From Paecilomyces variotii (Eukaryota), in assembly GCA_004022145.1 (NCBI GenBank), contig RCNU01000018.1: a stretch of 64,000 bases of DNA, one strand, 5' to 3'. A program made the position numbers and the translations under genes. Positions within the stretch are counted from its first letter, which is position 1; every line of letters starts with the position of its first letter. A model generated the notes under the pieces. That model saw only the letters and a program-made list of their open reading frames with translations, had not been told where the DNA came from and did no database searches. This document shows, in pieces, positions 9,964 through 37,069 of this stretch.

Positions 9964-12900
9964 ATGGGAGGTAATACCTTGTCCCGTGAGGGGCAGCAAG
10001 CTCCCGCCCAACAGCACGATCAACCCTCAGTACCTCTGCAGAACGGTCACGATGGAAATGTTGCCGGAGATGCCAACATTCTGCCTACGACGAAGGTACC
10101 TGCTCTGGATACTATCGACCAGTATGCTCTCGAGACCCCTCTTTCCCGTCACTCTTCCCGGGTGAGCAGCTCCACGCGTCTGTCATATACCGCAGACATT
10201 TCCAGCATTGCGGACGACGTCGTAAAAGGCTATGCGTCCTTTATATCCGAGTTTACTGGTCTCGATGACCTTGCCTTCTCGATCACAAGTACCGACAGTC
10301 CCTGGCAAACCGGTGCCAGGTGCGGGGTAATCTGCGCGTCTTTTTCAAGACCAGATTCTGAAGAAGCTGGTTCTTCAGACTCTCAGCTCCCGGAAAAGCT
10401 CCAGGAGCTCGAATTTGCCTCCTATAATGAAGATGAGATCCAATTTGCTTTGCTCTTAGCGTCTGGCGTTCGACCTGAGAATGGCGAGCAGCAAGCGGAC
10501 ACTGGTTCTAAAGATGTTAGTCAAGTTGCATAAGATGCATTGAGCCCACTTGAGCTAACAAGGTGTAGACATTCGTTTTGGCAGTTCAGCCGGAGGAGAC
10601 AAAGAACGAGTTGCAAATTTCTATCTCATGCTCCGGACGATTGATTCCCGAAGGCTCACTCAACCAGATATTGAAGACGGTCAGCTCTTGCCTAGTGAGG
10701 GCATCCAGTCACCTCCAGCTGCTAGCTTCTGAAGATGAAAGCGCTTCTCCGGAGCTCTCGATTATCAACTACCCTCCTCTCATGAAACCCCCACCATTGG
10801 AACACGAACGTGATGAGCCCATTCCGGACTCTTCTCTGCTTCATGGGGCCTTCGAGCGCTGGGCTCGCAGGGATCCTGGAGCCGTGGCTCTAGATTTCAT
10901 ACAATCACTTCCATCATCTACATCCCCAGCGGAACATAGCGTTCTCACATATGCCGCCCTAAACGCTGCCGCGACGAACTTGGCAGTTCATCTCCGCGGG
11001 TTACTGTCACGCCATGACTCAGTGGCGAACTGGCACCGCATTATTCCTGTATACATGTCGACTTCACCTGAACTGTATATTTCATATCTCGGCATCCTGA
11101 AAGCTGGCTATGCTTTCTCGCCAATTCCGCAAGATGCACCGGATCAGCGAGTGCGGGAGATATTGGGAGACATTGGCTCCCCTGTGATCTTAGGCAGGAC
11201 TCCTGAGCCTTCCTCGGGCCCATGGTATGAAAATTTGGGACATTGCAACAACGGATCAAGGCCAGCTTGGATTGATGTGGCAGAGATCACAAGATGGAAA
11301 GAGCTGAGCCAAATGTCTCTGACGGAGCTGCAAGCAAGAAGTCCTACCGATCTCCCCCGATCCTCTGAATTTGGAGAAGACAGCGTTGCCTACCTCCTTT
11401 TCACGAGTGGTTCGACCGGTAAACCTAAGGGAGTGCAAGTTAGCCATCTCTCAGCAACCTGTTCTATCAACGCTCATGCGACCTCTATTCCTCTCCCTCG
11501 AGACCCAAATGGGAGATTCCGCTGGTTTCAATTTGCCTCTCCGACATTCGACCCATCCCTGATGGAGATATTTGTGACTCTCAGTTCGGGTGCTGCTCTC
11601 TGTTCAGCATATCGACATCTCACTTTGACCGACCTCGAAACTACCGTAAATGAAGCTAGGGCCACAGTGATGATGGCCACGCCAAGTTTGGCAGCGCTGC
11701 TGCGGCCCTCACGCCTTCAGACGCTCGAATACCTTTGGACTATGGGAGAGAAACTCAATCGCACTGTTATTGAGAATTTCGCTTCCAAGGGGCTTCCTTC
11801 TGATGTAACAGATGAAAAGCGACCCTCGCGAATGCTCGTTAACGCGTATGGTCCAACAGAAGGTGCTATTAACTGTACCTTCCTAGCTCCAGTTGAACGT
11901 TCAGTGCGTGGATCGATCATCGGTGAAGCCTTGTCCACTTGTACAATGCTCGTATTAGATCCCTATTCTCGAGTGCCAAAGGCTGTCCCTGCGGGTATGG
12001 CCGGTGAACTAGCTATTGCAGGCCCTCAGGTCAGCAAGGGGTACTTGAACCGTCCGAAGGAGACGGCCAAGTCATTCGTGCATAGTTCAGAATTTGGCCC
12101 GGTCTACCGAACTGGAGATATGGCCCGTATCGTCTGGGATGAGAAGGGTCGTCAGTTATTCGAGTTCCTCGGCCGTATTAGCTCCGATCAAGTCAAGATC
12201 AGTGGTCGAAGACTAGAGTTGGGAGAGATAGAGTCTGTTCTCGCGACTGTCAACAATGTTAAGGAAGTTGTAGCTGTGCTCTTGCAGAGAGATCCAGCGC
12301 AGCAAGGAAGCGAGCAAATTGTCGCTTGTATTGTCCCAAGTGAGGAGACTGAGGCTGTCAAAGACCAAATTCTCAAGGACGCTCACGAAAGTACCCATAG
12401 GCATCTGGCCTCGTACATGTGCCCGTCGTCTTATGCTTTCTACGACGCCCTACCTCGTTCAAGCTCTGGAAAGGTGGATAGAAAGACTCTCTTGGCGAGG
12501 TTACAGCAAGCCCTGAAAGACGGAGTCAAGTTCGCAGCTGGATCTGAGACCCCAGCTACAAACGAAGTGCATAATGAAGATGAGCCCGATGACTCCCAAG
12601 TCGATGATCTGGCATTGCAGCAGCTTGTCTTCCAGTCTCTCGCTGACACTGCAAATGAACCCCTGACCGCTATCCAATCTTCAGTCAGTCTTTATTCTCT
12701 CGGCATAGACAGTTTAGGAGCGATGCGGTTCCTCCAGAGGCTGAGGGATAATGGCATTGACGGCTTGTCAGTCAGTGATGTGCTTCGCGCAGGAACCCCC
12801 GGAAGGCTGGTCTCCACGATCTTTCAACAACGTCAGAAGAGCTCCAGTCAGCTGCCCAATGGTTCCCAGTCAGCTGAGTTCCGCGTAGTGTCTCTTCAAG

Positions 12901-15900
12901 AGCAACTGCTGGCTTTTGACGAGCGAAACCGCCAACTTTGTGCAGAGAGACTACATGTAGATGCGCAGGCCATTGAAAAGGTGCTACCAACTACAGCAAC
13001 TCAATCCGGTATGCTGGCCAGCTTTATTCGCAGTTCATCAGAAGCAACACGTTCGAAGCGATCATATATCTACCACTCAGTCATTCGCCTTGAATCGGGT
13101 GTCGATATCGAACGGTTGAAAGCCGCCTGGAATACTGTTATAGCCAGCTATGATTCCTTCCGCACCGTTTTCTGCATGTTGGATGACGAGATGGCGCCGT
13201 TCGCTCAGTGTATTATAGCACCTTCTTCTGCACCAAAATCTCAATGGAAGACATACGGTGACTCCAAGCAGGAGAACTCCAGTGCAGGACCACTGGACAC
13301 TGCTCTTCGCGAAAGTGAGGAGTCCATCTCATTAGAACGCCATCCCTGGAATATCTCTCTGGTGGCAGGAACCAACCAGACGGCTGTTATTTTGAGCATG
13401 TTCCACGGTATCTTCGATGGTGGCTCTCTTCAACTTCTCCTAGAAGACGTTACTTCTGAATATCAGGGCAATTCTCGCAGTCATCGGACCTCTATAGAGC
13501 ATATTGTGAAGCACCATTATCTGGCCGATCAGGAGGAGACGTTGAACTTCTGGAAGAGTCACCTGGAAAACTATTCTCCTGTTCAATTTCCTTCCGTCAC
13601 ACCTTATAGACCATCATCTGCCAAGGGTGTCTCTGACGCGGTAGAGATCACTGCTCGCACGAGCTATGACTGCCTGCGAACGCAATCGAAGATCATAGGC
13701 TCCACACCGCTCTCTGTACTTCAGGCTGCTTGGGGTTCGATCCTTCTCGCCTACACTGGGTCTCAGGAACAAGATATCGTTTTCGGAAGTGTGGTGTCTG
13801 GTAGGCTTGACACTGAATCCGAAGCATGCGTTGGGCCCACCTTCACCACGGTGCCATTTAGGCTTGCACCAGGTCGGGTGAGCAGTGGTCAAGGGAACGG
13901 CAGTCATACAAACAAGACTCTTACCAACCACCTGGCTTCCTTGAATGCGGAGACGTTGCCATATCTTCAGCCACGATTGGGATCGTTGATCACTGCAGAC
14001 GGCCGGCTACCTTATGATACCCTTCTGGCCTGGCAAGACTTCGGTGCCGGGACCCGTGCGAGCAGTCTCTGGACGTCCGTAGAGCATCCACCTATGGCGA
14101 ACGATTTCGCCGTCATGGTCGAGGTGTGGCCTGACACGAATGGCGCGCTGACCCTGCGAGCCACTTACAATGATATACAGCTCGACAGGGCTGCTGCACA
14201 GCTGATGCTTCAGCAGATGAGCGATATCATAGCTTTCATCCTTGACTCTCCCGACGAAACCTTCGAACATGGCCTTACCAGCACTAGCTCTAGCTTGAAG
14301 TCGTCCTGGAATCCAGAGCCGGTGTACCTTGAGGAGCCGCTAAACAAGACTCTTCTGCATACTCAATTTGAAGATCATGCGAAGGATCATCCCGAAGATG
14401 TCGCTTTGATTTTCAAAGGAGACCTTGAACGCGACGACAGCCCTCTTAACATCACATGGACTTACAGTGAACTCAACCGCAGAGCTGATGCTTTGGCGCA
14501 CTACCTTGTCGACCGCTATGGTTCATTTGCCAACTCTCCCATCCCTATCTGTATCACCAAGAGCCCAGCAATGTATGTCGCCATTCTCGGAATTCTCAAG
14601 GCAGGAAGTGCATGGTGTCCCATTGATACCTTTTCTCCCGCGCAGCGTCGGCACGATCTCATTGCTCGCACTGGCGCAAGAATACTTCTAGTCTCTAGCC
14701 CTGACGGAGAACAACCAAAGGATGCCATCCCGGACGGCGTCGACGTCGTAGATATCAGTGCCTTCGCCAACAGTACGCCAACTTACACAAATGGGTTCAC
14801 AGGCGATGATGCAGCCTCAAAGGCAGGTCCTAACGACATGGCGTATTTGATCTGGACTAGCGGCACCACTGGCGCACCAAAGGGAGTTCCAATCAAGCAT
14901 TCTGCGGCTGTTTCGAGTATGAGATCTCTTCAGAAAGATATTCCCGCGGACGTCCCGGGAGGCGTGCGTTGCTTGCAGTTCTCACAGTACACCTTTGACG
15001 TCTCAATACAAGATATCTTCTACACTTGGGGCGTAGGAGGTGTTTTGATATCTGCCACTCGAGAAATTATGCTTGGATCATTCGCAAAGCTTGCCAATAC
15101 TACCCAGGCGACACATGCACATTTGACGCCTGCATTCTCTGCCGGCATTCCCCGAAAGAGCTGTGAAACTCTGAAAGTCATCACCATGATCGGTGAGAAG
15201 CTCACCCAGCCTGTTGCTGATGATTGGGGTTACGACATGCGAGCTTTCAACACCTATGGTCCCGCCGAAGTCACTGTCGTCTCGACAGTCCGCGAGTTCG
15301 GCAACGAACACCGAAACCTCAAGAGTGCTAACATCGGATGGCCGCTGGAAACCGTTTCTGTCTTTGTGATGAAAGATCAGAAAGTCGTCATGAAAAACGC
15401 AGTTGGTGAACTAGCGCTCGGGGGTCCACAGCTGTCTGATGGATATCTCAATCAGGAAGAGACGACAAAAAAAAGGTATATCTGGAACGAAGAGACCGGT
15501 CAGAGACTCTATTACACGGGTGATCTCGTTCGCATGCTTTCTGATGGCTCTCTGGAATATATGACTCGTGTCGACGACCTGGTCAAGCTGGGCGGTATCC
15601 GTGTTGAACTGAGCGAGATCAGCTTCTCGCTTGGTGGTTGCCATCCACTCGTCGAACAAGTCGAAACTATGATCCTCAGCCGCCCAGACCGACCAACAAA
15701 GGTAGTCGTTGCTTTCCTATCTGCACCTGAGGCCGTCTCAGGCGAAGCTGGCGATGGGCTCGTTCTTTCCAATGACAAAGCAGTTGGCATTGCTCGTGCT
15801 GCTATCGACCAGGCACGATCTGTTTTGCCAGACCACATGCTTCCTTCGGTTTATGTGGTTGTCAAGAACATCCCCAAGACGCAGTCTGCAAAGATCGACC

Positions 15901-18900
15901 GTGTTGCGCTTCAGAAATCTTATGCTTCAGTCGATATTGAAGCATGGGAAAGCAAAGTCGACCCATCTGTCAATGGCGAGGTCCAACAGAATGGAACTTC
16001 CGAAGAACATGTCATAGTCGATATTATTTCTTCACTAGCTGGAATCTCTGCCAAGGGTATCAAGAAATCGAACAGACTGGCGTCTCTCGGCATCGATTCG
16101 ATTCGCGCTATCAGGCTTGCATCCAGACTGAACCAGTCGGGTTATCGAATCTCCGTGATAGACGTCCTCCAATGCTTCACTGTGCAGGATCTCATCTCTC
16201 TCGCTACAGCGTCCTCTAAGAACCAGTCGTCAGCCAACCGTTTCAACATTGACGAATTCGAACAGAGATGGCACGACTCTGTCATGACCAAAGTCAGCGA
16301 GGACTTCTCCGTTGTTCGTGCATCTCCTATTCAGGAAGGTTTGCTTAGTGAGACAATGGGAGTGTATAATATGTATTGGAGCAACCACTTCTTCTCACTT
16401 GATAAAGACGTCGACTTAGGGCGACTGAAGCAGGCGTGGCTATACTCCGCCCAAGAAAACCAGGCGCTGCGCGGAGGATTCATCCCGATTGCTGAACTTG
16501 AAGTGGACAACGCTGCTGAATTAGGCTTCTCGGTCTTGCAGCTGATATACAGCCAGCCAAGTCTAGACTGGAAGGTCTGTCAATGCACGTCGGACGATTC
16601 CCTGCAGGTCTTGCAGAAGAGGATAAACGGTGTCATGGCCAAGCACCAAGCAAACTATTTCCGCTACCCGCCTTGGGCAGTGACAATCTTAGATAAAGAT
16701 GGCGAGATGATTATGGTCTTCACAGTCCACCACTCAATTCACGACGGCCCGTCACTTGAATACATTGCGGAAGATGTGCGCTCAGCATACAACAATCCTA
16801 ATTTGACACCGCCCGTAAGGCACCAGCTGCTCGATGCGCTCGCGATTGTCCTCCCAAACTCAGACAAGGATGCTGAGAATCTTCACTTCTGGACAAGGGA
16901 GCTGGAAGAGTTCGCTGACCCAGAGGGACCGGCTTGGCCCGATTTGACTGGAAAGAGAAATGCAGCCGATCCCTCTCGACGTCGTAGATTCATCGCAGAG
17001 GAAATCACTCTTGGTGTTTCTGCGTCCAAGTTACAGTCTGCTGCAGTTCAATTCGGCGTCTCTTCAATTGCCTCCATTATTCGTGCAGCTTGGGGCTGTG
17101 TCTCATTGAATTACTTGGGAGCTCCAGCAACGGTATTCGGCGAGACGCTGTCAGATCGTGTTTTAGACTCGACTCTCCAAGATGTCATTGGGCCCTTAAT
17201 ATCAGTTGTGCCTGTTCCCTTCCGTCCCAGAGGCACCGTTCGGGAGTTCTTAGCTGAGCAGCAGCGGCTGTCGGCTGAAACGTGGAAGCATCGTCATATC
17301 CATGCTCGGACTGTCCAGAAGCTCCTGATGCGCTCTAGAGGCCAGACATTATACCCTGGACTCTTCACCTTCCACCCTGTCTCCGATGGTCGCGACACGA
17401 AGGCTGATGGACCGTCCCTCTGGTCAGAGCTCGAGGATCAGATCGGTCTAGATGTGGAACATCCGATGGCACTCAATGTCACACAAAACGATGCCGGTGA
17501 ACTCATTCTGAGTGCATCTTCTGAGGATGCGGTGATGAGCTCCGAGCACTTGTCGTTATTCGTCCGTCAAGTTGATGCTCTCGTCAGTGTCATGCTATCT
17601 CATCCGGATGAGGAAGTTCTGGAGATCGTCAACCACTTGCCTACCCACATGCTGTCAATAAGTAACCCCAAGATCAGTCCAGAAGTCGCAGACTCAGTGA
17701 CTAAGAGTCCTACCTTCTGGCTGGAGAAGTGGGCCGGAGAGCACCCGGAATGGACCGCAGTAGAGATCGCCAGTGAAATCACAGAAGCCAAGGTCGAGAA
17801 GGAATCTATGAGCTTTGGTGAGCTGAATGCTGCGGCTAACCGTGTCGCTGCATATATTGCAGCAGCCGGCGTGAAGAAACGGATGGTTGCACTCTGCTCT
17901 GGGCGCACTCTTGCTTCCTATCCGATCATCGCGGGTATCTTCAAATCGGGCAATACGTACCTCCCTATCGACGAAGCACTTCCTGATGACCGCAAGGCAT
18001 TCTTGATCGAAGATGGAAACTGTGCGTTTGTCTTCACCGAGTCTAGCCTTGTCGACACATTCTCCGGTGCCCCTGATAGCTGCAAGGTGATTTGCATTGA
18101 CGATCCAGCCTTCCAAAACACTCTAGAAGGTTATTCCCCGGAGAATTTTGAGTCCCAGGCAGAGCCAGACGATATCTCCTATCTCCTTTACACATCTGGT
18201 TCGACAGGCAAGCCCAAGGGTGTTCTGGTGACTAGAGGTAACCTCTCCTCATTCGTGGAGAGTCAATCAGAATTCATCTGTCGTCATGCTCCGGCAACAC
18301 TCAAGCTCGCTGGCGCTGGTAAATATCTGGCACTTGCCAGCAGAGCTTTCGATGTCCATCTTGCAGAGATCTACCTCGCCTGGCGCCATGGCTTGGCGAC
18401 AGTAACGGGTCCCCGATCGATGCTGATGGACGATCTCCATTTGGCTCTCACCAAGTTGGACATTACCCATGCTAGCTTTGTCCCGTCGCTCCTCGATCAA
18501 GCCAACCTCATCCCAGATCAGTGTCCGAAGTTGAAGTATCTGAGTGTGGGAGGTGAGAAGATCTCAAAGAGAGTGGTCGACACATGGGGCGCCTCCACCA
18601 GCGTGGCCCTGGTCAACGCCTATGGACCAACAGAAGTGACTATCGGCTGTAGCTCAGCACTTGTCACGCCAGAGACCAATTTGAGGAATATAGGAAAGCC
18701 CCTCGGGTCTTGCGTAGCTCACGTGTTGATTCCCGGGACTGAGATTTATGCTCTTCGTGGCCAAACAGGAGAGCTTTGTTTCACCGGAGATCTGGTCGCA
18801 AGAGGCTATCTCAACAGACCTGATGCCAAGGGATTTATCGATGACTTCCACGGCACTCGGCTCTACAGGACGGGTGATATCGTCCGCTTAATGGCCGATG

Positions 18901-21900
18901 ACTCCATCGAATATCTCGGTCGTGGCGATGATCAAACCAAAATCAGAGGACAGCGACTGGAACTCGGAGAAGTCTCAGAAGTCATCAGGTCCTCGTCCGA
19001 AGTCAAGCTCGATGTTGTCACTATGCTCGTCCAACATCCAAGCCTCTCCAGAGTACAATTAGGCTCGTTCATCGCACGAGCAGAGGACAGGCCGCGTGGA
19101 AAAGGTCACACTGTTTCCTTCTTGGAGTCCGAGTTCCGGACAACAGGTCAAGAGCTTCGGTCCGCATGTCAAAAGAAGCTCCCTGCGTATATGGTGCCCG
19201 AACTCGTTATCCCCGTGAACTTTATCCCGCTGGCACCAATGTCTGGTAAGGCGGATGTGAAACAACTCCAGGCTCTATTGGCGGGAATTCCGTTGTCGAA
19301 TCTCCTGCAGACAAATGGCGGACCGTCACTATCTTCTAATACTGCACCGAGTCGTCCCCTGACCAGCAACGAAGAAGAGGTGGTCAAGGCAATCCTAAGT
19401 GTCATCTCCACGGATGCCTCGATTATCAGTCATGCAACGAACATCTTTGAAATCGGCCTCGACAGTTTGAGTGCTATCAGTCTGTCGGTCAAGCTGAGGA
19501 ACATTGGCTATGAAGCAACCGTCGCATCCGTGATGAGCAACCCCATAGTTGAACAACTTGCTCAACTGCCTAGGTCTTCAGGTGCAGCGACCGATGCCAC
19601 AAGCGAGGAGACTCGAAACAGATTCCGCGAATTAGAAATCTATGTCCGTGAGAACCCTGCAGATGGCGTCGATGCAGCAACGATATTTGCTGTTAGACCC
19701 TGTCTCCCCCTCCAAGAGGGACTGGTGGCACGTTCCATGAACAGCGAGGGTGTGCAGCTATACGTCAACCACATCATGCTGGAGTTGTCCGGAAGCATAA
19801 ACTCGGACAGATTGAAAAATGCCTGGGAAGAAGCTGCAAAAGACAACGAAATCCTTCGAACTGCATTCGTCCCGACGCCGTCAGGCATCGTTCAAATGGT
19901 CCTCGCCAAAAGTGAATACAAGTTACCTTGGGACGTAAAAGAAGTTGATGACACAGAGCTGCCGTGGTTGAGCTCTCAAGATCAACAAGAAGAACTCGCA
20001 AAGGATATCATCAACCGTATTTCCTCAATCCCACCACTTCGTTTCCGGTTGGCAAAGTCCACAGGACCCCAGCAACGACTACTCCTGTCCATCGCTATCC
20101 ACCACTCTCTTTATGATGGAGAGTCGCTTTCCATGTTACTGGATGAGGTTGCAGCGCGGTACAAAGAAATCGATGTCCCCAAGAGAGGTTCTGCTGCCGC
20201 TTTCGTGGAGTATGTCCATTCTCAAGACATCGAAAGGTCCAAAGTCCATTGGACACAGTTTCTTGAGGGCTGCGATCCTACCACTTTCAGAGCCAGCCAA
20301 GACGATGTATTGGAGCAGCCAACAGTCGTGCATCGAACTCTCGGGTTCAAGCTCTCTGCACTGGAAGCGCGCGCATCAAGTCTGCGGACAACGGCACAAT
20401 CTCTGGTACAAGCAATCTTTGCGCTACTCCTTGCGGACACTGTGGGCAAAGGAGATGTCACGTATGGAGCGGTCCTTTCAGGAAGAGCTGTCCCAGTTCC
20501 CGGAGCTGATTCCGTGCTCCTCCCTTGTATTACGACGGTGCCTGGTCGACTAAACACTGACGGTCTTACAACCGTCAAAGAGGTTATAAAGGCCGTTCAG
20601 GAATCAGCTGTGAAGTCGCTGGAATACCAACACACCTCTTTGCGACTCATACAACGCTGGGTTGATTCTGAGAGGCCTCTTTTCGATTGTCTCTTCTCGT
20701 ACATTCGGAGCACGAAGCCTCGGGATCATGGTCTATGGAAAGAACTAGACAGCCAGATGGCTGCTGACTATCCTTTTGCTCTTGAAGTCGAAGCGGACAA
20801 TGCAAACGACCTCATGTACACCCACTGTGGCTTCACCTCCGCGTTTGGCGCATCACACAGCGCAGAGGACTTCCTGGAGAAAATGGACGTCCTTATCTCG
20901 AGCATAATCGATGGTGCAGACGTTTCCTTGGACAACTTCAACTTGTCTGTATCGAGACGATCAGACGCAATCACTAAGGAATCCCGATGGGACGAGGCGT
21001 CATGGTCGGAGATTGATACGAAGATCCGTGAGCTCGTCGCCAGCTTCTGTGGTCTAGGCCTAGAGACCGTTTCCAAGTCAGCTTCATTCCTCAGTCTCGG
21101 TATTGATTCAGTTACCGCTATTCAGTTTGCGCGCAAGCTGCGTGAATGCGGGATTCAGGTTTCATCAGCTGATATCATGCGTTTCTCTTGCGTCGGAGCG
21201 TTGTCTGCTCACATTGAAGACACGCGTGCTGAATCCAAGATCAACATCAATGGCGTCACGGAGACGAATGGTATCAAGAGCCTTGATGAATACCGGGATA
21301 AGATACCTCTTCTAGCACCCGAAGATTCTATCTCGACCGTCTTTGAATGCGCACCGCTACAAGCAGGCATGATCACTCAGACACTGGCTTCTTCCGGTGA
21401 AGTGTATGTCCACCCGCACATTGTCCAGCTTTCCGATACGACAGATATTGAGAAGCTTCGACACGCCTACGCTGAAGTGGTCTCTTCAAATGATATCCTG
21501 CGCACATCATTCCACTCTATGCAGGAGCTTGGCTTCTCATGGATCGGCGCAGTCCACAGCTCCCCCCCTCTTCTATGGGAGGAGATTAACTTATCTTCAG
21601 ACCTCAATATCGCTGCTGAAGTGACGAGCCGTTTCCGGTTGCAAGATGAAGCTTCCTTCCAATCCCCACCGCTGCGCGCATTTGTGCTTAAGACCGCGGA
21701 CAAGATATACCTGGCTATAGCCATGCACCACGCGCTGTACGACGGTGTCTCGTTGCCGTACATCTTCGAGGATCTCGCAAGCATCTACCAAGGATCAGTA
21801 CCTCCAGCAAGACCTCAGTTCACAGAGGTGGTCGGACATATCTTGGAAGGTCAAGAAGAAGCATCCAGGTTCTGGACCCAGAGACTGCGTGGCTATGATG

Positions 21901-24434
21901 TCTTCGAAATCCCACCGCTGCCCGAAACCGAATCATCAGAAAAGATGTACCTCGCAGAACGGCGCGTCGACCTTGATCTGTCGATGATCATTGAAGCCTG
22001 CAAGAACCTGGAAGTTACCGTCCAGACAGTATCTCTCCTGGCATATGCCAAAGTCCTAGCGTGCTTGACAGGTAAGCGAGACGTCGTTTTCGGACACGTC
22101 CTCGCCGGACGTTCTCTTCCTGTTACTGGAGGCGAAAGGACCATCGGTCCATTATTCAACACTGTTGCGGAGCGCGTCACATTAGATCCCAAATTCCTCA
22201 GCAACAAGGCAATAGTGACTCGCCTGCAGCAACTAAACACCGATGCCCAACAATACCAGCACGCTTCTCTCCGCACCATTCAAAGCTCCCTGCGCCAGTC
22301 TGATGATCTAAAGACTGCGTCCATCTTCGACAATCTGTTCGTCTTCCAGAAGACTGCCGACCTAGAGCCTGGAGTTCTCGACGAACAGCAAATCTGGCAA
22401 CCATACGTGACAGAAGACACCGGCGCACAAGCTGAGCACAAACTGAACGTCGAAGTCGACCATACTCGAGACGGCGTCATAATCCGAGCATCTTGCAAAG
22501 GACAGTACATATCTCAGGAGACGCTCCGCTCTCTTCTCAGGGACTTCGAGCTCGCGTTCAAAGACATCATCGAACACCCAAATCGCTGCGCAACGATCAT
22601 TCCTGAGAAGCTCCAGCAGCTACCACTTCAACTGACCGACGGCAACAAGTCCACAGACGAGTCGACTCACCAGGATCCCAACATCCCCGCACACGAGGAC
22701 ACCGTCCGGCAAATCCTGGCTGAAATCGCAAGCGTGCCCCCAGGAGTCATCACGCCCACCACCAGCATCTTCAGCATCGGACTGGACTCTATCGCTGCAA
22801 TCCGCATCGCTGCCACTTGTCGCGCCAAGGGCCTCAAGGCAGGCGTTGCTGATATTCTCCAAGGAAACACTCTTCGTGGCATCAGCATGCGCGTCTCAGA
22901 CGAAGCCTCTTCGCCATCCTCCCAGGAAGAGAGGAACAACGACTCAGCCAAGAAGACGAAGAAACCGCTCCTTCCCAACTACGAGCAGGTCCAGGAGACA
23001 GTGACGCGACAACTCGGCATTCCTGCCGATGCCATCGAGACTATACTCCCCTGTCTAAGCGGGCAGATGTACCATCTCGTCAGCTGGTTGAAATCCGGCC
23101 GTACGCTCTTTGAACCGGCATGGACGTATTCCAGTCGTGAAAGACTAGATGCGGACAAACTGAAGCAAGCATGGTTCAAGCTCCGACAGAGACATCCTAT
23201 CCTGCGCACATGCTTCGCGGCTCTCTCGCCAGCTGACGCTGTCCAGGTTGTCTTGAAAGAAGCACATCGCAACGGTAACGGGGAAGACGAAACGTTCGAA
23301 TTGATCGATGCCTCTTCCAAGGCCGTCGTCGAAGCAGCGCAAACTCAAGCAAGAGAAGAAGCGCTCCATCCCTCCTCGCTAAAAACACCACCCGTACGAC
23401 TCCGTCTCGTGAGGGCGTCTGATCAAGATGCAATCCTCCTCCTCGTCAACCACGCCGCATACGATGCATGGACCATGCCTCAATTCGTTAACGAACTCGC
23501 AGAGCTGTATCAGAACCTCGAGCCAACTTCGAACCCGGACTTCCCATCCTTCGTCGAATACTCGATCGATTCTCTGCAGAGTCTTGATCAGGAGAAATAC
23601 TGGATCTCAGCCCTCGCAGACGGCACGCCTACAATTCTCTCCAGTGAAACAGACCCGTCAGATAAGCAGCAGCAGCAGCGACCATCTCAACTCTTCGTCG
23701 GAGCCTGGGACACGATCCACAATGTCTCCAGCCTCGACAAGACTGTCCGTGCAGCAGGAATGGGTCTCCAAACCATCGTGCTTCTCGCGGTGGCCCGCAC
23801 CCTCGCGCGCCACACCCAAACCGCGAACCCGACGTTTGGTCTCTACCAGACTGGTCGCTCGGCCTCGTTCACAGACATCGAGCGCCTCTCTGGACCCTGT
23901 TTGAACGTCACACCTTTCACCGTAAAGAATGCCCTCGATGCACCATCTGACTCACACGCAGGAGCGGAAGCGGAAGCAGAAATATGCATCAATGCAGCGC
24001 GCACTATCCAATCCACCCTCGCAGAGCGCGTCCCCTACGAGCAGTCGTCTCTACGAGATATCCTCCGCTGGACAGGCCACGGCAGTAAAGATGCCCCGTT
24101 GTTCAATGCCTGGGTCAATCTCCTCTGGGCTCAGCCCAGTGATCCCACAGACTCCTCGTCGCTCTTCAGCCCTCTCCCTATCGGGGTGCCAACAGATTTT
24201 ATGCCCTCGCATCCTCTTCCCGGCAGCACGTCAGTCGACCTGCTTGACACAACCTTCTTGCCTGACGAGGGCTTCTACATCGATATCGGACCAGATCCGC
24301 GCAAAGACACGATCGGATTCGGTGTCCGAGTCGAGGGTGGGATCATGGATGAGAGTGAGGTGAGAACGTTCATTGATGCGGTGGCTACTGAGGTGGAGAG
24401 TATCGCTCAAAGTCTCGCACGGCCCGTAAAATGA
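9964..24434 (+). CDS. sidC: Ferrichrome-family siderophore NRPS, SidC-type, ~4,805 aa, A-T-C-A-T-C-A-T-C-T-C-T-C
   Basis: Exon 1 9964-10515, intron 10516-10568 (GTTAGT..CTAAC..TAG), exon 2 10569-24434 in frame. Three A domains (FTSGSTGKPKG, WTSGTTGAPKG, YTSGSTGKPKG), five T domains (LGIDSL, LGIDSI, IGLDSL, LGIDSV, IGLDSI), five C domains (FHGIFDG, HHSIHDG, HHSLYDG, HHALYDG, NHAAYDA). Confidence 0.93.
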
Positions 24435-25019
24435 TCATTGCAATGTGGGAAAGGGGGAGAAATACCAGGGCCGTAGTGCTCGGGAAGGGAACGAAACATA
24501 GATATAGAGTGCATACCCAGTCCATTGTATATACTAGTAGTAGCCGTTGATGTACATTTCCTTTTCTCGTCCTTTACCGGTCATCGTTACGAATCAGCGC
24601 GTGTATATATACTTGTAGAACCACGCTCAATCTACACGAGTGATAATCCATTACAATAGCACTCGATGACACAAGAAAAAGAAGCTTTCTCGAACACTTG
24701 TCAACTTTTGATATTAAATATGTATATACATCAGGGGTAAGAGGTCGTTATACATCATTGCGTCACACCATTGCCTGTGGGCGGAGCAAGGGATGGAGAG
24801 GCCAAAATAATTATGCATCTAAGATGCGCGGAAGCAGGAAAAGGATATGTGACAGGCATTACAATGAAGAGTGTGAAAAGCTGTTCAATATGTATGTGCG
24901 AATGGGAGACATGCTTGGAGAGCATTGTGCTCTGTAATGGAAGGGGTTGATGAAGACGGAGTCGAGCCAAGGGGCCCCAGTGAAAGCAAGAAAGGAAAGC
25001 CAAAGCCGAATATATAGAA

Positions 25020-25298
25020 GCCTGGGGGCCCCGATGACAAGATGGGGCCCCAGGCACATGAATGTGAAAAGAACAGTGGGAATATGAGAACACTGAAAAG
25101 CCTGGGGCCCCCGGTGACATGATGGGGGCCCAGGCACAGACAGAAAAGAAGAGAGAACCAAAGAGAAATACATACATAAAAAGCCCAGGGGGCCAAACAT
25201 ACGGCCCCCCTGGGCACATGTGAACACTCAATGTTGGGGCCGGTAAAGAAGAAAGAAAACATAAAAAGCTCCGAAGGACCACATACGGCCCCTCGAGC
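25020..25298 (-). repeat. Array of four GC-rich stem-loops, ~80-85 bp period, A-rich (plus strand) spacers
   Basis: Stems start at 25020, 25100, 25183 and 25268. Each is framed on the plus strand by AAGC..GCACA. A partial fifth arm lies at 24971-24980. Confidence 0.85.
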
Positions 25299-25641
25299 AC
25301 AAGACCGTATCGATGGGATCGACTGTCGCAACCATATGGATGTTGTTGGGGAGAGACATATAATTCCGATGAGGCCATGCGGCAACGCCGGCACAAACGG
25401 ACGACAAAACAAACAATAGCACAAAGGATGCCGATACCCCCGAAGGGATAACGATACAAAATAAAACAGGGGGTAAGGATATCAAAAAAAAAAAAAACAC
25501 AAAACAAAAACGCCGAACGCCCCCGGCCCCAACCAACGCCAACAAAACTAACATACAGGATAAAAAAATACAAAAATAAAAACTACAAAAACAAAAACAA
25601 AAAACAAAACAAAACAAAAACGAGCGACAGGCACGTCACGA

Positions 25642-28600
25642 CTAACGATTCGTCGTGACGTAGTAGAGGATCAGGTTTTTCTGTTGACGGTTGGCGTCAA
25701 CAGCCCTGAAAAAGGCGTCTTCGTTGGCGAAGACGCCGAAAAGAGGGACGCAAAGGTCCATTACCCCCTTTCGTACCTCGGGGTCTTTGTCTGAGAGGTT
25801 GGAACGAGTGAACGAGGCCACTCGTTCCAACAGCGGCTGCTGGACTGCCGTCTTTGTCATGGCGCAGTCGCGGAGGAGCATCGTTAGGACCCAGATGCCC
25901 ATGTTCACCGCGCGGAGACCTTCTCGGTCCCGCTTCTCCGTCTCGATCTGGTCGAGGACGGCTCTTATCATGCGGTGTCCGTCGCGGGTGTCGACGACGA
26001 AGTCTTCAAAAGTTTCTTCCAGTCCGCTGACGATGTAATGAGTTGCGTCGTAGTATTTCCGAGCCTTGAGCATTGCCGTCGTGGCAGTCGGGTAATACGG
26101 GGCAAACTGTTCGCGTCCGAACATGTATATGACACGGATCGTCACTAGAATCTGGACCTTGATGTCCAGGGCGGCCGGTAGCTTTGATGTAGGGGGCTTT
26201 TCGAGAGCGGAGAACAAGGCAAGGAGCAAGAGCATGTAGAGGTGATCGGTGTCAGCGTTTTCCCCTGGGTTAAACATGGACTCATGGAACTTGATGAGAC
26301 CTTGGATTTTGCGGTAACCGTATACGTCGAGCTTATTGTCCTTGATTTTGGTGATTCCTTTCTCCAGGATTTCTCGGGCCGCGGCAGGATCTTTCGAGCG
26401 CGGACTGATACTCTTGCATCTGTGTGCAAATTCGAGTCTGATCCAGCTCTCACGGTTCGCTCTAGAAGTCGGGTTTGAAGTCGGGTTTGAATCTGGGTTC
26501 GAAGCGGCGCGCAAGGATAGTGATGAGAGACGGAGTGAGGAGTCGTTCAGAGAACGTTCTTCCAAGGGGCTCGAAATCGTCCGACACGGCGTGGACAGAC
26601 TGCTGTGATCGGGGCCCATGTTTTCGTTTTGCATCTGTTGCATACGTTGGAGACGTTCAGGACGAAGGAGGAATGGTGAAGGTGTGTCATTGAGGATGAG
26701 TTTATCCTCAGAGAACTCGAAAGATTTGGCAAGGTCGTTTGACTGTGAGTCTTCGTATACCTTGACCGTCTCAGGGTCCATAGTGTCTGCCTCAAGCTTT
26801 AGCTCGGGCTTTTCAACCGTCGTGACCGTCTGAAGTTCCATAGTGTCTGCCTCAAGCTTTAGCTCGGGCTTTTCAACCGTCGTGACCGTCTGAAGTTCCA
26901 CAGTGTCTGCCTCGGGCTTTAGCTCGGGCTTTTCAACCGTCGTGACCGTCTGAAGTTCCATAGTGTCTGCCTCGGGCTTTGCCTCTGGCTTTTCGATTGT
27001 CACCGTCTCATATTCCATGCTGTCGACCTCGGGCTTTGCCTCTGGCTTTTCGACTGTCGTCACAGTATCGGTCGACTGGAAACCACCAAGTCTCTTTGGC
27101 TTGGTGGTGGTGGTGGCAGTAGTTGGCGCCGAGTCCGTTGTGGACTTCGGGCGCACTGGATTCGAGGACCTCGCAGTTGGTGTCACTGGGCGGAATGTCT
27201 CAGGACGGGTGGTGGTGGTGGTGGTAGGCGCCGAGTCCGTTGTGGACTTCGGGAGCACAGGATGTGAGGGCCTCGTAGCCGGTGTCACTGGGCGAGATGC
27301 TTCAGGACGACGAGGCTTCAGAGCTGGTCGCATAGGTGCAGATGATAAAGAAGAGGTAGGAGCTGCAGCAGAAGGTGCGTGCTTCGCATCGGGTGTCGCC
27401 TTGGACGCAGCCGCCATCTTGGCCTTCCTCTGAGCCGCGATAGCCTCCTTCAGCGAAGTGCGGGTTGGTGCAGCAGAAGTGCTTTTCGAGAACGCAGGTC
27501 GTGCTTGATCAGAAGTCGACAGCGATGGTTCGCCATGGTTCGGATTCGCTGGGTCCTTCTCCAGCAACGACCTCGATTTCGAATCTAGAGTAGAGAGTAT
27601 TCTAGTGTCCTATGGTCAGCAACCGCAAATCAACGAACCTTCAGGGAAGAGACAAAAGACTTACTCATTGGCCCTGTCCGGCCACACCGCGTAGAAGGCC
27701 CAGAAAGTTCCCCGCATCCCCTCTCGGACGCCCGGGTTGGCATCAGCCAGTCCTTTCTTGATACACTTCTCCAAAAGGTCGAGTCCGCCTCCGTGTTCGA
27801 CCGAGGCCTTGTGTTGGGCTTGTTTCTGTATCAGAGTCTTCAGCCAGCCCGTGACAAACAAACGCGGCTGGGTGTTCTTGTCCTGGCAGGCGAGCCACAG
27901 GTGCTGCAGGAGACGGGGGGTGTATGAAACATGAGCGATGATCGCGTCGACAGTGACTTTGCCGTTGTGAGCAGAGATCTTCTTGATGATCGCGCACATC
28001 TTGATCATGTTTTGCATGAGTATTTCAACCATGTGGTCGATTCCGGGTCCGTTGACTCGGGCAAGGTCTTGGATAAGGAGGCATCCGGCAGTAGACAGAG
28101 TCGTTCTGAGGGAGTTGACCGTCTTGAGGATGCCGTCTAGCAGGGTCTTGATGGCGGCAAGGTACTGCTGAGGGTAGGTGTGAGGTGCGTTGCCTCGCGT
28201 TAGTCTGCGAAGCGTCATGACATGCTTCTCGCGGAGAGTCCAGTTCTGTTCCGACTCTCTTCCTTCAAAGTCGGGAGTCATCTCGCGCGTCATGTCGTCG
28301 ATTTCGCGATGGGAATGGATGTAGAGAGGGTCGATCTTTTCGCCCTCGTCGGTCTCGATAGGAGCCGCGGCAGCAGAAGTCGTGAGCGAATCCATGCTCC
28401 GACTCTGAGATAAATTCTGAGGAGGTAAGGGCGCCGGCCGTCCCAGCTCACCCCTGCGTGCTGTCGCTGCACGCGCTGCCAACGCACGCTTTTCCAGGAT
28501 GTCGATCGAGTCTTCGCGCGGCATTTTGAACGGCAGTTGATGGGTAGGTGTATCACATCGACAGTTGGAAAGAGTCGAGAGGACCGATTCAGGACGTGGC

Positions 28601-29950
28601 ATCGACATGGCCGACGTCGACATGCTCGTCGAGACGCCCGACATGGCCGACATGACCGACATGACCGATGCTGGACGTGGAATCTCCTCGGGAGCACGGT
28701 GTGAAAAGCTGCTTTCCGGTCTTAGTGCAGAATCGAGTCGAGGCTGGGAATCGACACGAGGTTGTGGATCGATAGTCATAGTTGCCTTCGTCGTGGGAGC
28801 ACGGTGTGAAAAGCTGTTTTCCGGTCTTAGTGCAGAATCGAGTCGAGGCTGGGAATCGACACGAGGTTGTGGATCGATAGTCATAGTTGTCTTCGTCGTG
28901 GGAGCACGATGTGAAAAGCTGCTTGCCGGTCTTAGTGCAGAATCGAATCGAGGCTGGGAATCGACACGAGGTTGTGGATCGATAGTCATAGTTGCCTTCG
29001 TCGTGGGAGCACGGTGTGAAAAGCTGCTTGCCGGTCTTAGTGCAGAATCGACACGAGGTTGTGGATCGATAGTCATAGTTGTCTTCGTCGTCGTCGTGGT
29101 CGTCGACATCTCTTGGTCGACGGATCCATCGAGGTCAATGCTGTTGATGATTGCAGTGGCAATAGACTTGCGGACATTTAGAAGCGTCAGTTGCTTCTTG
29201 AGATCAGACTTGGCTCGTGGGGGTGCGGTCCTGTCATGTCCGGTTAGTGAGTGACGAGGAGGAGACAAGGGGTCAGTGGGTCGACGACGACTTACTGGAA
29301 GAGTTCAATGACAGTAGCCTTGGCGGTGTCTCTAACACCACTGTCTGCATCCTCCAAACAGGCAACCAGCCGGCCAACATGGTTCTTGAAAAGCAGACCG
29401 TACTGCTTGGTCATCTGTAATACAATGACATGTGAGTGAGTACAAAGTTCAAGTTCCAAATGAGGAAGGAGGGTATCTCGGGGAAGGCTCCTACCGTGCT
29501 AAGCCAATTCATGGCCGTTTCCTTCGCGCGCGGGTTCTTTCCCGTCAGTGCAACCTCGAGCACATGGTGTTCGACATCTGCGCCTGCCGCTGACCAGAGT
29601 TCGGTGAATGCTTGGGCCGCCTGCGCGCGGACCCGTTCCTTGTGATCGCCGAGGCGTTCGAGGAGCAGCGGGTAGAGATAGCGGCTCTGAAGGACGACTG
29701 CATGTTGCTGTTGCTGGATTCCGAGCCGTTTGAGGAGATGACCGAGAGCCGAAAAACCAGCACCGGAGAGAGAGGTGTGGGGGGAAGCTATGGCCTGCTT
29801 CACGCTGTCGAAGATGGGAGTAATGGCGGATTCTGGCACGTTCTTCTGTTTGATCTCAGACTTCAACGCAGTCATGTGGGTGACTTTGGTGTCGACGGAA
29901 GCATTGCTGTTCCTGAGGATGGCCAGGAGCTCGATCGCCTTGGCCTCCAT
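25642..29950 (-). CDS. stu1: Stu1/CLASP microtubule-associated HEAT/TOG protein, 4 exons, with internal tandem repeats
   Basis: Exons 29950-29495, 29414-29296, 29230-27665, 27601-25642 (GT-AG, frames join). N-terminus MEAKAIELL..LLERLGDHKERVRAQAAQAF; CLASP_N segment FEGRESEQNW..NSLRTTLST..KGLADANPGVRE; C-terminal HEAT-like region. Confidence 0.9.
26778..27070 (-). repeat. 60-bp coding tandem repeat (20-aa TVTTVEKPELKLEADTMELQ), ~5 copies
   Basis: Near-identical 60-nt rows at 26781-26960, followed by degenerate copies. Confidence 0.9.
28691..29092 (-). repeat. 105-bp coding tandem repeat (35-aa TTKATMTIDPQPRVDSQPRLDSALRPESSFSHRAP), 3 full + 1 shortened copy
   Basis: GGAGCACG anchors at 28691, 28796, 28901, 29006. 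Confidence 0.92.
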
Positions 29951-35695: not shown

Positions 35696-37069
35696 TCAAA
35701 GAGCCAATTGATGTCTCTGTGGAGACTCTTCTAACGTTCTATATAACCGTTGTGTATACAGACGGACCCGTTCCGTGAATTCAGATCCATTCCAGGTTTC
35801 CTTTCCATCCTTTTCTGATATCTTAGGAACGCCAATCTGTTCCACCACGAAACCTGCTGCAACCGTTGCGCAAATCAGTGCTAGAGGAATCTGCCCGTTT
35901 TTGCCCCAGGTTTGGACAATGTTCTTCCAGGGTTCCGATGGTGCAAGGACAGATTCGATTGTCTCGACAGGACTTCTTCCCTGACTGATCATCCCTTCCG
36001 CCAAGGCTCCTAAAAAGGAATTCCCGCCGCCTGTGGGATCGACCACAGGTGGTGGATTGGAAGGGTCTGGCTGATGATAAGCGGGCAGCCAGATCCCATG
36101 GCCCCGCGAGTATGAGTAGCTGCCATTCTTACCTGCCCTGATCACCAAGGTCCCGTTCCCGTCAGGACCAATTCCCGATTTGAGAATCTTCCTCACTAGT
36201 TCTCGGTCATCTTCATTGCTTTCATCCCATCCTGGTCGACCGAACATCATGCCCAGCTCTAGTTCGTTAGGACTGACCACATCCACCACCCGAATCGCCG
36301 TGAAGAACCTCTCCTGCTCTTCTGGAGTGCAAAGATCGGGAACGGGCTCCCAGACGAAGAGCGGTCTCGTAGCTGCGCCAGAGGACGGAGGAATATAGCC
36401 CTTCTGTAGCAACTCTTCTCTCCTCTCCAGAATCCTTTGCACGATGGAAACAGCCCGCACGGACGAGCAGACCATATGGAATGTCCGCGAGAAGACCTGC
36501 TGTTCGGACAGCATGTCCGGTTCCAAACGCAATTTCGGCGTCAGATACTTAAAGTCTGTCGATATCATCGTATACAATCAGTAAAAAGGCAAAAAAGTAG
36601 ATTGCTAGAGGTCAATTGGCACCAACCCCTCTTCTCATTTGGACCATAGCCATTCCACGCCCTGGTGGTCAATCTCCCCTTATCCTCTCGAATTACACAT
36701 TTCGTGTTCCACGAGCGGATTACATCCAATACGTCGTTGGGGAAGTCACATCCAACATCGACGATCCAACTGACGGCCTGCGAATGCTCTCTGCCGGCCA
36801 CCATCCGTGCGCCGACGACTGCGAAGGAAGCCGCTCCGCCCAAGGCGCCCTTTACGGGCGGAATGCCCTCTCCAAACTCAATGTCATCTGTAAGAGGAGT
36901 TGATTGTTAGGTATTTTACTGCAGGAATAGTTCGCATTTGATCTAAGAACAATGCGTGGCTGATCATCCGAGGCGGGAGTTCTTGTATCATACCAAGGAT
37001 GAACATGCCAAGAGTGCAGAAGTCGACATCCTGTGTGGAGGGGTCTGTCGAGCTCTGCGATGTCGACAT
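35696..37069 (-). CDS. PfkB/ribokinase-family protein, Mak32-like
   Basis: DFCTLGMFIL|DDIEF, LGGAASFAVVGAR, LTTRAWNGY, FVWEPVPDLC, VVSPNELE, VVDPTGGGNSFLG, VEQIGVP; two introns. Confidence 0.8.

Follow-up and report, generated by a model that had tools for sequence, protein, structure and literature searches.

A transcribed local array of four homologous GC-rich hairpins downstream of stu1 in Paecilomyces variotii

The 3' UTR of transferrin-receptor mRNA carries an array of five iron-responsive elements (IREs), and multivalent protein binding to the array controls decay of the message. Bacterial repetitive extragenic palindromes (REPs) shield the upstream mRNA from 3'-5' exonucleases. The GC clusters of fungal mtDNA are short GC-rich palindromes in AT-richer sequence, often several in a row. 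Here we describe four homologous GC-rich hairpins (hp1–hp4, or units 1–4) at 25020-25055, 25100-25135, 25183-25215, and 25268-25298 of a 64-kb stretch of fungal nuclear DNA from Paecilomyces variotii (hereafter, the window), and compare them with these systems.

The array resembles the IRE array in that several homologous short hairpins lie within a few hundred nucleotides of one putative 3' UTR. However, its loops, AUCWUGUCAYC and GUAUGU(UU), are not the IRE loop, no Rfam IRE family matches 24300-25800 at E-values up to 10, its stems are longer and almost pure G-C, and it is so far found in one species only. The likeness to bacterial REPs and BIMEs lies in the units themselves, which are bulged, imperfect GC-rich palindromes of 33–36 nt, clustered, extragenic, and transcribed at the 3' end of a gene. 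However, the locus is eukaryotic and nuclear, and it holds a single cluster within 64 kb, whereas REPs occur as hundreds of dispersed copies. We know of no transposase associated with the hairpin array. The units also share with mitochondrial GC clusters that they are GC-rich palindromes embedded in AT-richer sequence, but they are located between two nuclear genes, and their flanks are strand-asymmetric (A-rich on the plus strand), not simply AT-rich. Like intrinsic (rho-independent) terminators, the minus-strand forms of hp3 and hp4 have a GC stem with U5 directly after it, and a terminator-like scan matches both; however, the gene is a nuclear RNA polymerase II gene, and RNA continues past hp1–hp4 and is polyadenylated 325 nt after the array. 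Neither the REP/BIME nor the IRE family includes the array. We found no description of such an array in fungi in the literature, which is not proof that none is in print.

The array lies in a 1.2-kb gap between two convergent genes. On the plus strand, the ORF at 10578-24434 ends in Condensation and PP-binding domains and therefore encodes a non-ribosomal peptide synthetase (NRPS); its stop codon is 590 bp from the array. On the minus strand, the ORFs at 27661-29268 and 25642-27567 belong to a CLASP/Stu1 gene (Pfam CLASP_N, E = 3.3e-90), with 25642-27567 as the last exon and 25642-25644 as the stop codon. In the protein comparison of the C-terminal 312 residues, 14 of 2314 candidates passed; identity is 100% with 13 proteins of Paecilomyces variotii and 88% with one of P. 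lecythidis, which bears the name 'suppressor of tub2 mutation'. The alignment extends to the last residues of the P. lecythidis protein, indicating that the stop codon is real. The gene beside the array is thus stu1, as had been read from the sequence.

The gap is U-rich and A-poor on the stu1-sense strand (A 14.5%, C 25.3%, G 20.8%, T 39.4% over 24695-25641). Between the stop codon and the array, a U-rich low-complexity tract occupies 25477-25626 of the minus strand, in accordance with the long U-rich tract reported earlier; it was masked as a repeat in the mapping of RNA contigs described below. Tandem Repeats Finder reports only A-rich low complexity here, at 25484-25621. In the 64-kb window, neither TACCCTCAAACACAA nor any tRNA or tmRNA is found.

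The hairpins start at 25020, 25100, 25183, and 25268, that is, at spacings of 80, 83, and 85 bp. This array, with its dissimilar spacers, had been described in a reading made from the sequence alone (the sequence-only reading), and its sequences and coordinates are as described there. All folds given below are RNA folds of single units, each compared with 200 shuffles. On the minus strand, hp1 has a 12-bp stem with one bulged C and an 11-nt loop, AUCUUGUCAUC, with UGUG on its 5' side and CUUCUAU on its 3' side; it folds at −26.4 kcal/mol (z −3.75), and at −27.3 kcal/mol on the plus strand. Hp2 has 12 bp, a bulge, and the loop AUCAUGUCACC (minus strand, −26.4 kcal/mol; plus strand, −27.8 kcal/mol). 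Hp3 has 12–13 bp, a bulged G, and the loop (G)UAUGUU(U), also given as GUAUGUUU, and at −28.5 kcal/mol on the minus strand (−27.8 kcal/mol on the plus strand) it is the most stable hairpin of the window. Hp4 is the weakest unit, with 12 bp including two G-U pairs, a bulge, and the loop GUAUGU. Across all units, minus-strand folds have z-scores of −3.1 to −4.3, and 0–1 of 200 shuffles is equally stable.

The sequence-only reading gave each unit a 12-bp stem with one bulge, a 5' UGU, and a U-rich 3' flank. The stem is as stated for hp1, hp2, and hp4, while the best fold of hp3 has 13 pairs and one bulge; the position of the single bulge differs between units. The flanks are present: UGUG precedes all four units, and CUUUU(U)A follows hp2–hp4 (conserved as UGUG and CUUUUUAUG), but hp1 has CUUCUAU instead. 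Hp1–hp3 are about equally stable on both strands. Hp4 is stable only on the minus strand (−19.5 versus −11.4 kcal/mol), where its two G-U pairs complete the stem, just as had been noticed. A fifth, decayed unit at 24965-24983 of the minus strand retains only a homologue of the left arm, with 79% identity to the left arms of units 1 and 2, and shows no significant fold (z −0.21). The smaller hairpins proposed to follow the array are not borne out, since 25300-25395 folds no better than shuffles (z −0.19). Separately, the final 200 nt of the stu1 coding sequence contain three more strong hairpins at similar spacing.

Within the window, the array stands out by several measures. A scan for Watson–Crick hairpins returns 18 with at least 10 matched pairs, among which only hp1–hp3 have a GC fraction of at least 0.75, the rest reaching at most 0.67. 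Of 31,978 sliding 44-nt folds of both strands (mean −7.6, s.d. 3.75), the seven most stable include six from hp1–hp3; when only the minus strand is considered, hp1–hp3 rank first to third in stability among 174 hairpins at −15 kcal/mol or below. All four copies of the octamer GGGGCCCC in the window fall within 24971-25111. A covariance model built from the four units, as the sequence-only reading had proposed, recovers from the 64-kb window those four only, besides their own reverse strands (hp1, 54.5 bits; hp2, 53.7 bits; hp3, 59.5 bits; hp4, 45.5 bits), and the next-best place scores 13.1 bits (E = 0.33). Neither this model nor the hairpin scan finds a further copy in the window.

The units are related in sequence. 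Identity between units 1 and 2 is 90% over 41 nt, and one G-C pair is flipped to C-G. In unit 3, two stem pairs differ at both of their positions from those of units 1 and 2, and units 3 and 4 have the loop and part of the stem in common. The spacers of the five 80–85-nt units do not align, so that Tandem Repeats Finder detects no tandem repeat of about 80 bp. No target-site duplication is found; the palindromes are bordered by AAAA or GAA on the left and by ACA on the right, with no direct repeat adjoining them. The shared flanks, the regular spacing, the single cluster, and the lack of target-site duplications make local duplication the simplest origin. We read the four units and the decayed half-unit as probably one family of homologous GC-rich hairpins, local and restricted to its lineage.

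The resemblance of clustered, extragenic, 33–36-nt GC-rich palindromes in AT-richer flanks to REPs and to yeast mitochondrial GC clusters suggests two other origins, from a mobile mini-palindrome with dispersed copies (MITE- or REP-like) or from mitochondrial GC clusters copied into the nucleus. Such origins are very unlikely, given that no further copy lies in 64 kb, that the flanks carry no target-site duplication and have a purine/pyrimidine strand asymmetry, and that local duplication agrees better with the shared flanks and the regular spacing. In addition, the hairpin pattern has 0 matches in viral contigs, and 596 billion bases of prokaryote genomes contain no more than 35, which are scattered. 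Of these, 21 are in records titled Streptomyces and most others are in other actinobacteria; we take them as unrelated high-GC palindromes, arising by chance or terminator-like.

The stems vary in sequence and remain paired. RNAalifold predicts 12 pairs common to the four units, of which 6 show a double change in at least one unit with pairing kept. The earlier statement to this effect therefore stands, on the basis of four paralogous copies in one genome, not of orthologues. In unit 4, two transitions produce G-U pairs on the minus strand and A·C mismatches on the plus strand. This asymmetry, taken in the sequence-only reading as pointing to selection on RNA, is real, but two transitions would place G-U on the transcribed strand with a chance of about 1 in 4, and so it is only a hint.

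Paralogue covariation can also be explained without selection. Template switching during replication is reported to generate both perfect stems and compensatory changes at several bases through a single event (PMC8794818). The hairpins treated there (Monttinen and Loytynoja 2022) resemble the present units in their near-perfect reverse-complement arms and multibase 'compensatory' differences; that work concerns the origin of stems in RNA genes and does not predict four units at regular spacing or conserved single-stranded flanks (PMC8794818). Two explanations can be given for stems that stay paired while the spacers diverged, namely selection on an RNA structure in the transcribed strand and replication template switching.

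Variation among sequences bears on this point as well. The four RNA runs whose contigs were mapped on the locus list no difference from the window between 24445 and 26139, while they have 6 variant sites in 24223-24444 and 12 in 26140-26347. The 207-residue translation of 24755-25378 (minus strand) occurs in two Logan variants, identical over hp1–hp3. One of the variants replaces Gly by Arg at the codon 25289-25291, which lies within the hp4 5' arm, so that a G-C pair would be lost; hp1–hp3 show no polymorphism among the sequences compared. Invariant units 1–3, conserved flanks, and kept spacing argue for some constraint, whereas the weak, polymorphic hp4 and the dead half-unit argue against tight constraint. 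A weakened hp4, a strain variant that would break one more of its pairs, and a decayed fifth unit look like birth-and-death rather than tight constraint.

The same evidence bears on the array as a functionless by-product, in which a short GC palindrome would have been duplicated locally, its arms kept complementary by template switching, and the result carried in a transcribed 3' region. We regard this as doubtful in itself, but nearly as likely as a role in the 3' UTR. It would account for an array that is confined to one place in 64 kb, lacks any known protein-binding loop motif, and includes a decaying, stem-polymorphic hp4 and a fifth unit already reduced to a half; it is also consistent with the lack of the array at distant stu1 loci (see below), and template switching is reported to supply perfect stems and compensatory changes at a stroke (PMC8794818). 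It accounts less readily for spacers that have diverged beyond alignment while stems and short flanks stay alike, for the retained 80–85-nt spacing, and for hp1–hp3 without polymorphism among the sequences compared. The wobble pairs present only on the transcribed strand also speak against it, though weakly, at a chance of about 1 in 4.

The array is transcribed. The stretch is contained in 20 public runs, of which 6 are RNA libraries, and contigs of 4 RNA runs from 4 studies were mapped on 24000-26400. In three of them (X17, X19, and X20, from three studies), RNA contigs cover 24695-25158 and 25080/25189-25476. Contig 7 of X17 (24695-24980) continues into 24 T on the plus strand at a point where the genome has no A-run. 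This is a non-templated poly(A) tail on the minus strand, added at 24695-24696, and the RNA that carries the hairpins is therefore of stu1 sense, in agreement with the strand proposed in the sequence-only reading. UAUAUA and AAUAUC-like motifs are located just upstream of the site, and may be its polyadenylation signals. The contig of the fourth run, X15, crosses from inside the NRPS gene over the convergent boundary to 25476 at even depth and so is probably genomic DNA; this run was discounted as evidence of transcription as probably DNA-contaminated.

The hairpins are 344–622 nt past the stu1 stop codon, and the RNA ends 947 nt past it. To relate this RNA to stu1, we consider contig 13 of X19, which has 542 letters, 397 of them aligned on 25080-25476; no part of it continues into sequence unlike the window. 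If colinear, its other 145 letters probably extend it to about 25621, approximately 21 nt from the stop codon. Over 25642-25893, no contig is listed in X17, X19, or X20, such holes being unreliable as evidence, and 25477-25626 is masked. The hairpin RNA is likely in one molecule with the stu1 coding part. The proposed placement of the array in the 3' UTR of the stu1 mRNA thus holds as regards sense and polyadenylation, whereas the link to the coding sequence, interrupted by the masked tract, is only likely.

The same data could instead reflect an independent polyadenylated transcript of about 0.7–0.9 kb, either non-coding or from a young gene, with its start within the U-rich tract or shortly past it and its end at 24695; the hairpins would then be its own structure and no part of the stu1 mRNA. 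The depth over the hairpins exceeds that over the stu1 coding sequence (87–105 versus 52 in X17, 217 versus 8 in X20, and 47 versus 16 in X19), the three runs have a contig hole over the last 250–400 nt of the coding sequence, and 947 nt is long for a 3' UTR in a filamentous fungus. However, contig depths are as unreliable as the holes, being inconsistent within the array itself (87–217 over hp1–hp2 versus 4.5–6 over hp3–hp4 in X17 and X20, but 10 versus 47 in X19), 3'-biased libraries inflate 3' ends, and the X19 contig probably comes to within 21 nt of the stop codon. A separate 207-aa protein in NCBI/UniRef, encoded over the array at 24755-25378 of the minus strand, would also favor such a transcript. 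However, the translation of a 272-codon ORF over the array has a hit in its own species only (1 among 845 candidates, and 0 of 49), and the A-poor minus strand is open over the array in all three frames. On both grounds, the ORF at 24755-25378 is judged spurious and is not credible as a gene, and the database protein is probably spurious as well. On balance, we consider an independent transcript unlikely.

Since hp1–hp3 are equally stable on both strands and the array is located where two genes converge, 590 bp away from the stop codon of the NRPS gene, it could act as DNA, as cruciform-prone palindromes or protein-binding sites that form, for example, a barrier to read-through or replication. 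In accordance, CTGGGG in the arms of hp1 and hp2 fits the CreA/Mig1 consensus SYGGRG. However, hp3 has no CTGGGG, the asymmetry of hp4 favors the RNA strand, and the poly(A) site downstream of the array means that transcription passes through it. A DNA-level element is the least probable of the readings weighed here. CreA sites and a Puf/UAUG motif were also considered as ideas for the units, and neither fits all four.

Comparison with known RNA families places the array in none of them. Rfam 15 gives 0 matches at gathering thresholds in the whole 64-kb window. Over 24300-25800, the best hits stay below threshold and are on the plus strand: mir-680 scores 25.2 bits against a threshold of 104, and snR67 scores 23 bits against 55. 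A milRNA-like precursor of small RNAs, or a snoRNA precursor, could draw on these hits, on the ACA that follows each hairpin on the plus strand, and on the GAUGA...CUGA that brackets unit 1 to unit 2. However, the hits score far below gathering and are on the strand opposite to the polyadenylated RNA, and the whole window, as stated above, has no Rfam match at threshold.

The individual classes fit no better. Box C/D snoRNAs have a box C (RUGAUGA) and a box D (CUGA) joined by a terminal stem; here, CCGAUGA...CUGA occurs only from unit 1 to unit 2, a box C/D-like pair at 1 of 4 units, and on the plus strand, while the polyadenylated RNA is minus. H/ACA snoRNAs have two long hairpins with pseudouridylation pockets, a hinge ANANNA, and an ACA 3 nt from the 3' end; the present hairpins are 31–36 nt long, each has one bulge but lacks an internal loop, an ACA is found after them on the plus strand only, and no H/ACA family is among the Rfam hits of 24300-25800. 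A Dicer substrate has a continuous stem of about 20 bp or more, and stems of only 12–13 bp do not suit a milRNA precursor. The processing into small RNAs that had been offered as one interpretation is thus weak on the length of the stems, and we hold a small-RNA or snoRNA precursor to be highly improbable. With respect to protein-binding loops, the IRE has CAGUGN with a C bulge, the Smaug recognition element CNGGN, and Rnt1 substrates an AGNN tetraloop; the loops of the four units fit none of the three.

We also looked for the array in relatives. The C-terminal domain of stu1 evolves fast: among 231 proteins with E-values up to 0.001, one relative has 87% identity, and the representative that comes after it has 46%. 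Scanning metagenomes with a seven-sequence stu1 alignment yields 8 loci, 7 of them distinct, with 33–43% protein identity. No array is present downstream of stu1 at these 7 distant fungal loci: within 2 kb downstream there is no hairpin with a GC fraction of at least 0.6 and at least 9 matched pairs, three loci have a single AT-richer hairpin each, and the covariance model finds nothing better than 9.6 bits (L008, a duplicate of L001, being omitted). The structure, which the sequence-only reading had asked to be sought in relatives, is therefore not an old feature of stu1 genes.

Taken together, the array is real, transcribed, unclassified, and so far known from one species. The observation of the hairpins in the sequence-only reading is confirmed, and its interpretation is supported in part, by the stu1 sense, the polyadenylation, and the kept pairing. 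We tentatively prefer, at somewhat less than even confidence, a reading in which the hairpins are cis-acting elements of the stu1 3' UTR, locally duplicated, that serve stability or protein docking. The units would have arisen by short duplications inside a long, pyrimidine-rich 3' UTR of the stu1 (CLASP) mRNA. The hairpin RNA would then be stu1 mRNA whose 3' UTR measures about 947 nt, and in this UTR the four very stable 12-bp stems are predicted to form. The stems may constitute a multivalent cis module that either blocks exonucleases in the decay of the message or offers docking sites to a protein that binds double strands or loops, and such a module could set the stability or handling of the stu1 message. 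Selection on the RNA would keep the pairing, possibly aided by DNA-level template-switch repair. The three strong hairpins near the end of the stu1 coding sequence and the lack of listed differences between 24445 and 26139 also count for such a role. Against it are the length of 947 nt, which is long for a filamentous fungus, the lack of the array at the 7 distant loci, and the fact that no binding protein or motif is assignable.

By analogy with the bacterial and transferrin-receptor systems, the array might go further and represent a eukaryotic counterpart of a REP/BIME or an IRE cluster. In that case, the set of four units, each a hairpin plus a U-tract, would be young and specific to the lineage, with a periodicity of hairpins that possibly extends into the final 200 nt of the stu1 coding sequence; it would halt exonucleases or dock a protein, and thereby yield a stable polyadenylated 3' fragment or control turnover or localization of the CLASP mRNA. 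We consider this quite unlikely. If it were true, the locus would offer a rare view of a structured 3'-UTR element at its birth through duplication and template switching.

The locus matters on either outcome. It already flags the 207-aa protein in NCBI/UniRef as probably spurious. If the array is without function, it is a clean example of DNA-level processes that mimic the covariation usually taken to prove RNA function, and a caution for covariation-based scans. If it is functional, the message of a conserved microtubule regulator would carry a multivalent structured element of recent birth, which would provide a tractable case of the birth of a 3'-UTR structure, by duplication, template switching, and then selection on pairing.

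The hairpin array downstream of stu1 (four GC-rich hairpins, 25020-25298, minus strand) is covered by an annotated protein. The NCBI and UniRef databases hold a record of a 207-residue protein identical to the translation of the ORF at 24755-25378 (minus strand). The ORF has no homologue beyond Paecilomyces variotii, and the minus strand there is poor in A, with all three frames open. The 207-residue protein is probably a spurious gene model.

On the plus strand, an intronless ORF of 4618 codons (10578-24434) is positioned convergently with stu1. Its final 977 residues contain Condensation and PP-binding domains, indicating that the ORF is a large NRPS gene. RNA contigs over its 3' end terminate near 24653-24659.

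Two contigs from public RNA runs, at 25341 (X17) and 25443 (X20), continue into the reverse complement of 25298-25309, the 12 nt immediately upstream, in the RNA sense, of the fourth hairpin (25268-25298). The two runs belong to different studies. Their run-ons probably arose artefactually, by cDNA folding back at microhomologies of 3 nt, but they converge on one site. In addition, loose contig ends at 24659 and 25158, from two runs, share the 15-mer TCAAACACAA, which is absent from the 64-kb window and is followed in X17 by Illumina adapter sequence.

Outside the array, a perfect 13-bp GC-rich hairpin is located at 36013-36056 on the plus strand (-28.1 kcal/mol). Of the seven 44-nt folds that rank highest in stability across the window, no other lies outside the array.

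Within its final 200 nt, the stu1 coding region has three more strong hairpins on the minus strand, at 25632-25662, 25705-25746, and 25798-25831, with folds of -17.6, -20.3, and -22.3 kcal/mol, respectively; one of the three goes across the stop codon (25642-25644), and one has a perfect 13-bp stem. Their centres are 78-89 nt apart, a spacing that resembles that of the 3'-UTR array, the hairpins and this likeness being post-hoc observations. The background rate on the minus strand is about 0.4 hairpins per kb at -20 kcal/mol or below.

Farther upstream, at 26700-27100 within a stu1 exon, the coding sequence specifies TVEKPELKPEADTMELQTVT-type peptides repeated in tandem. The recorded Stu1 proteins of P. 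variotii range from 1197 to 1402 residues in length and have identical C-termini, which suggests that the range reflects either variation among strains in the copy number of the TVEKPELKPEADTMELQTVT-type repeat or differing gene models.
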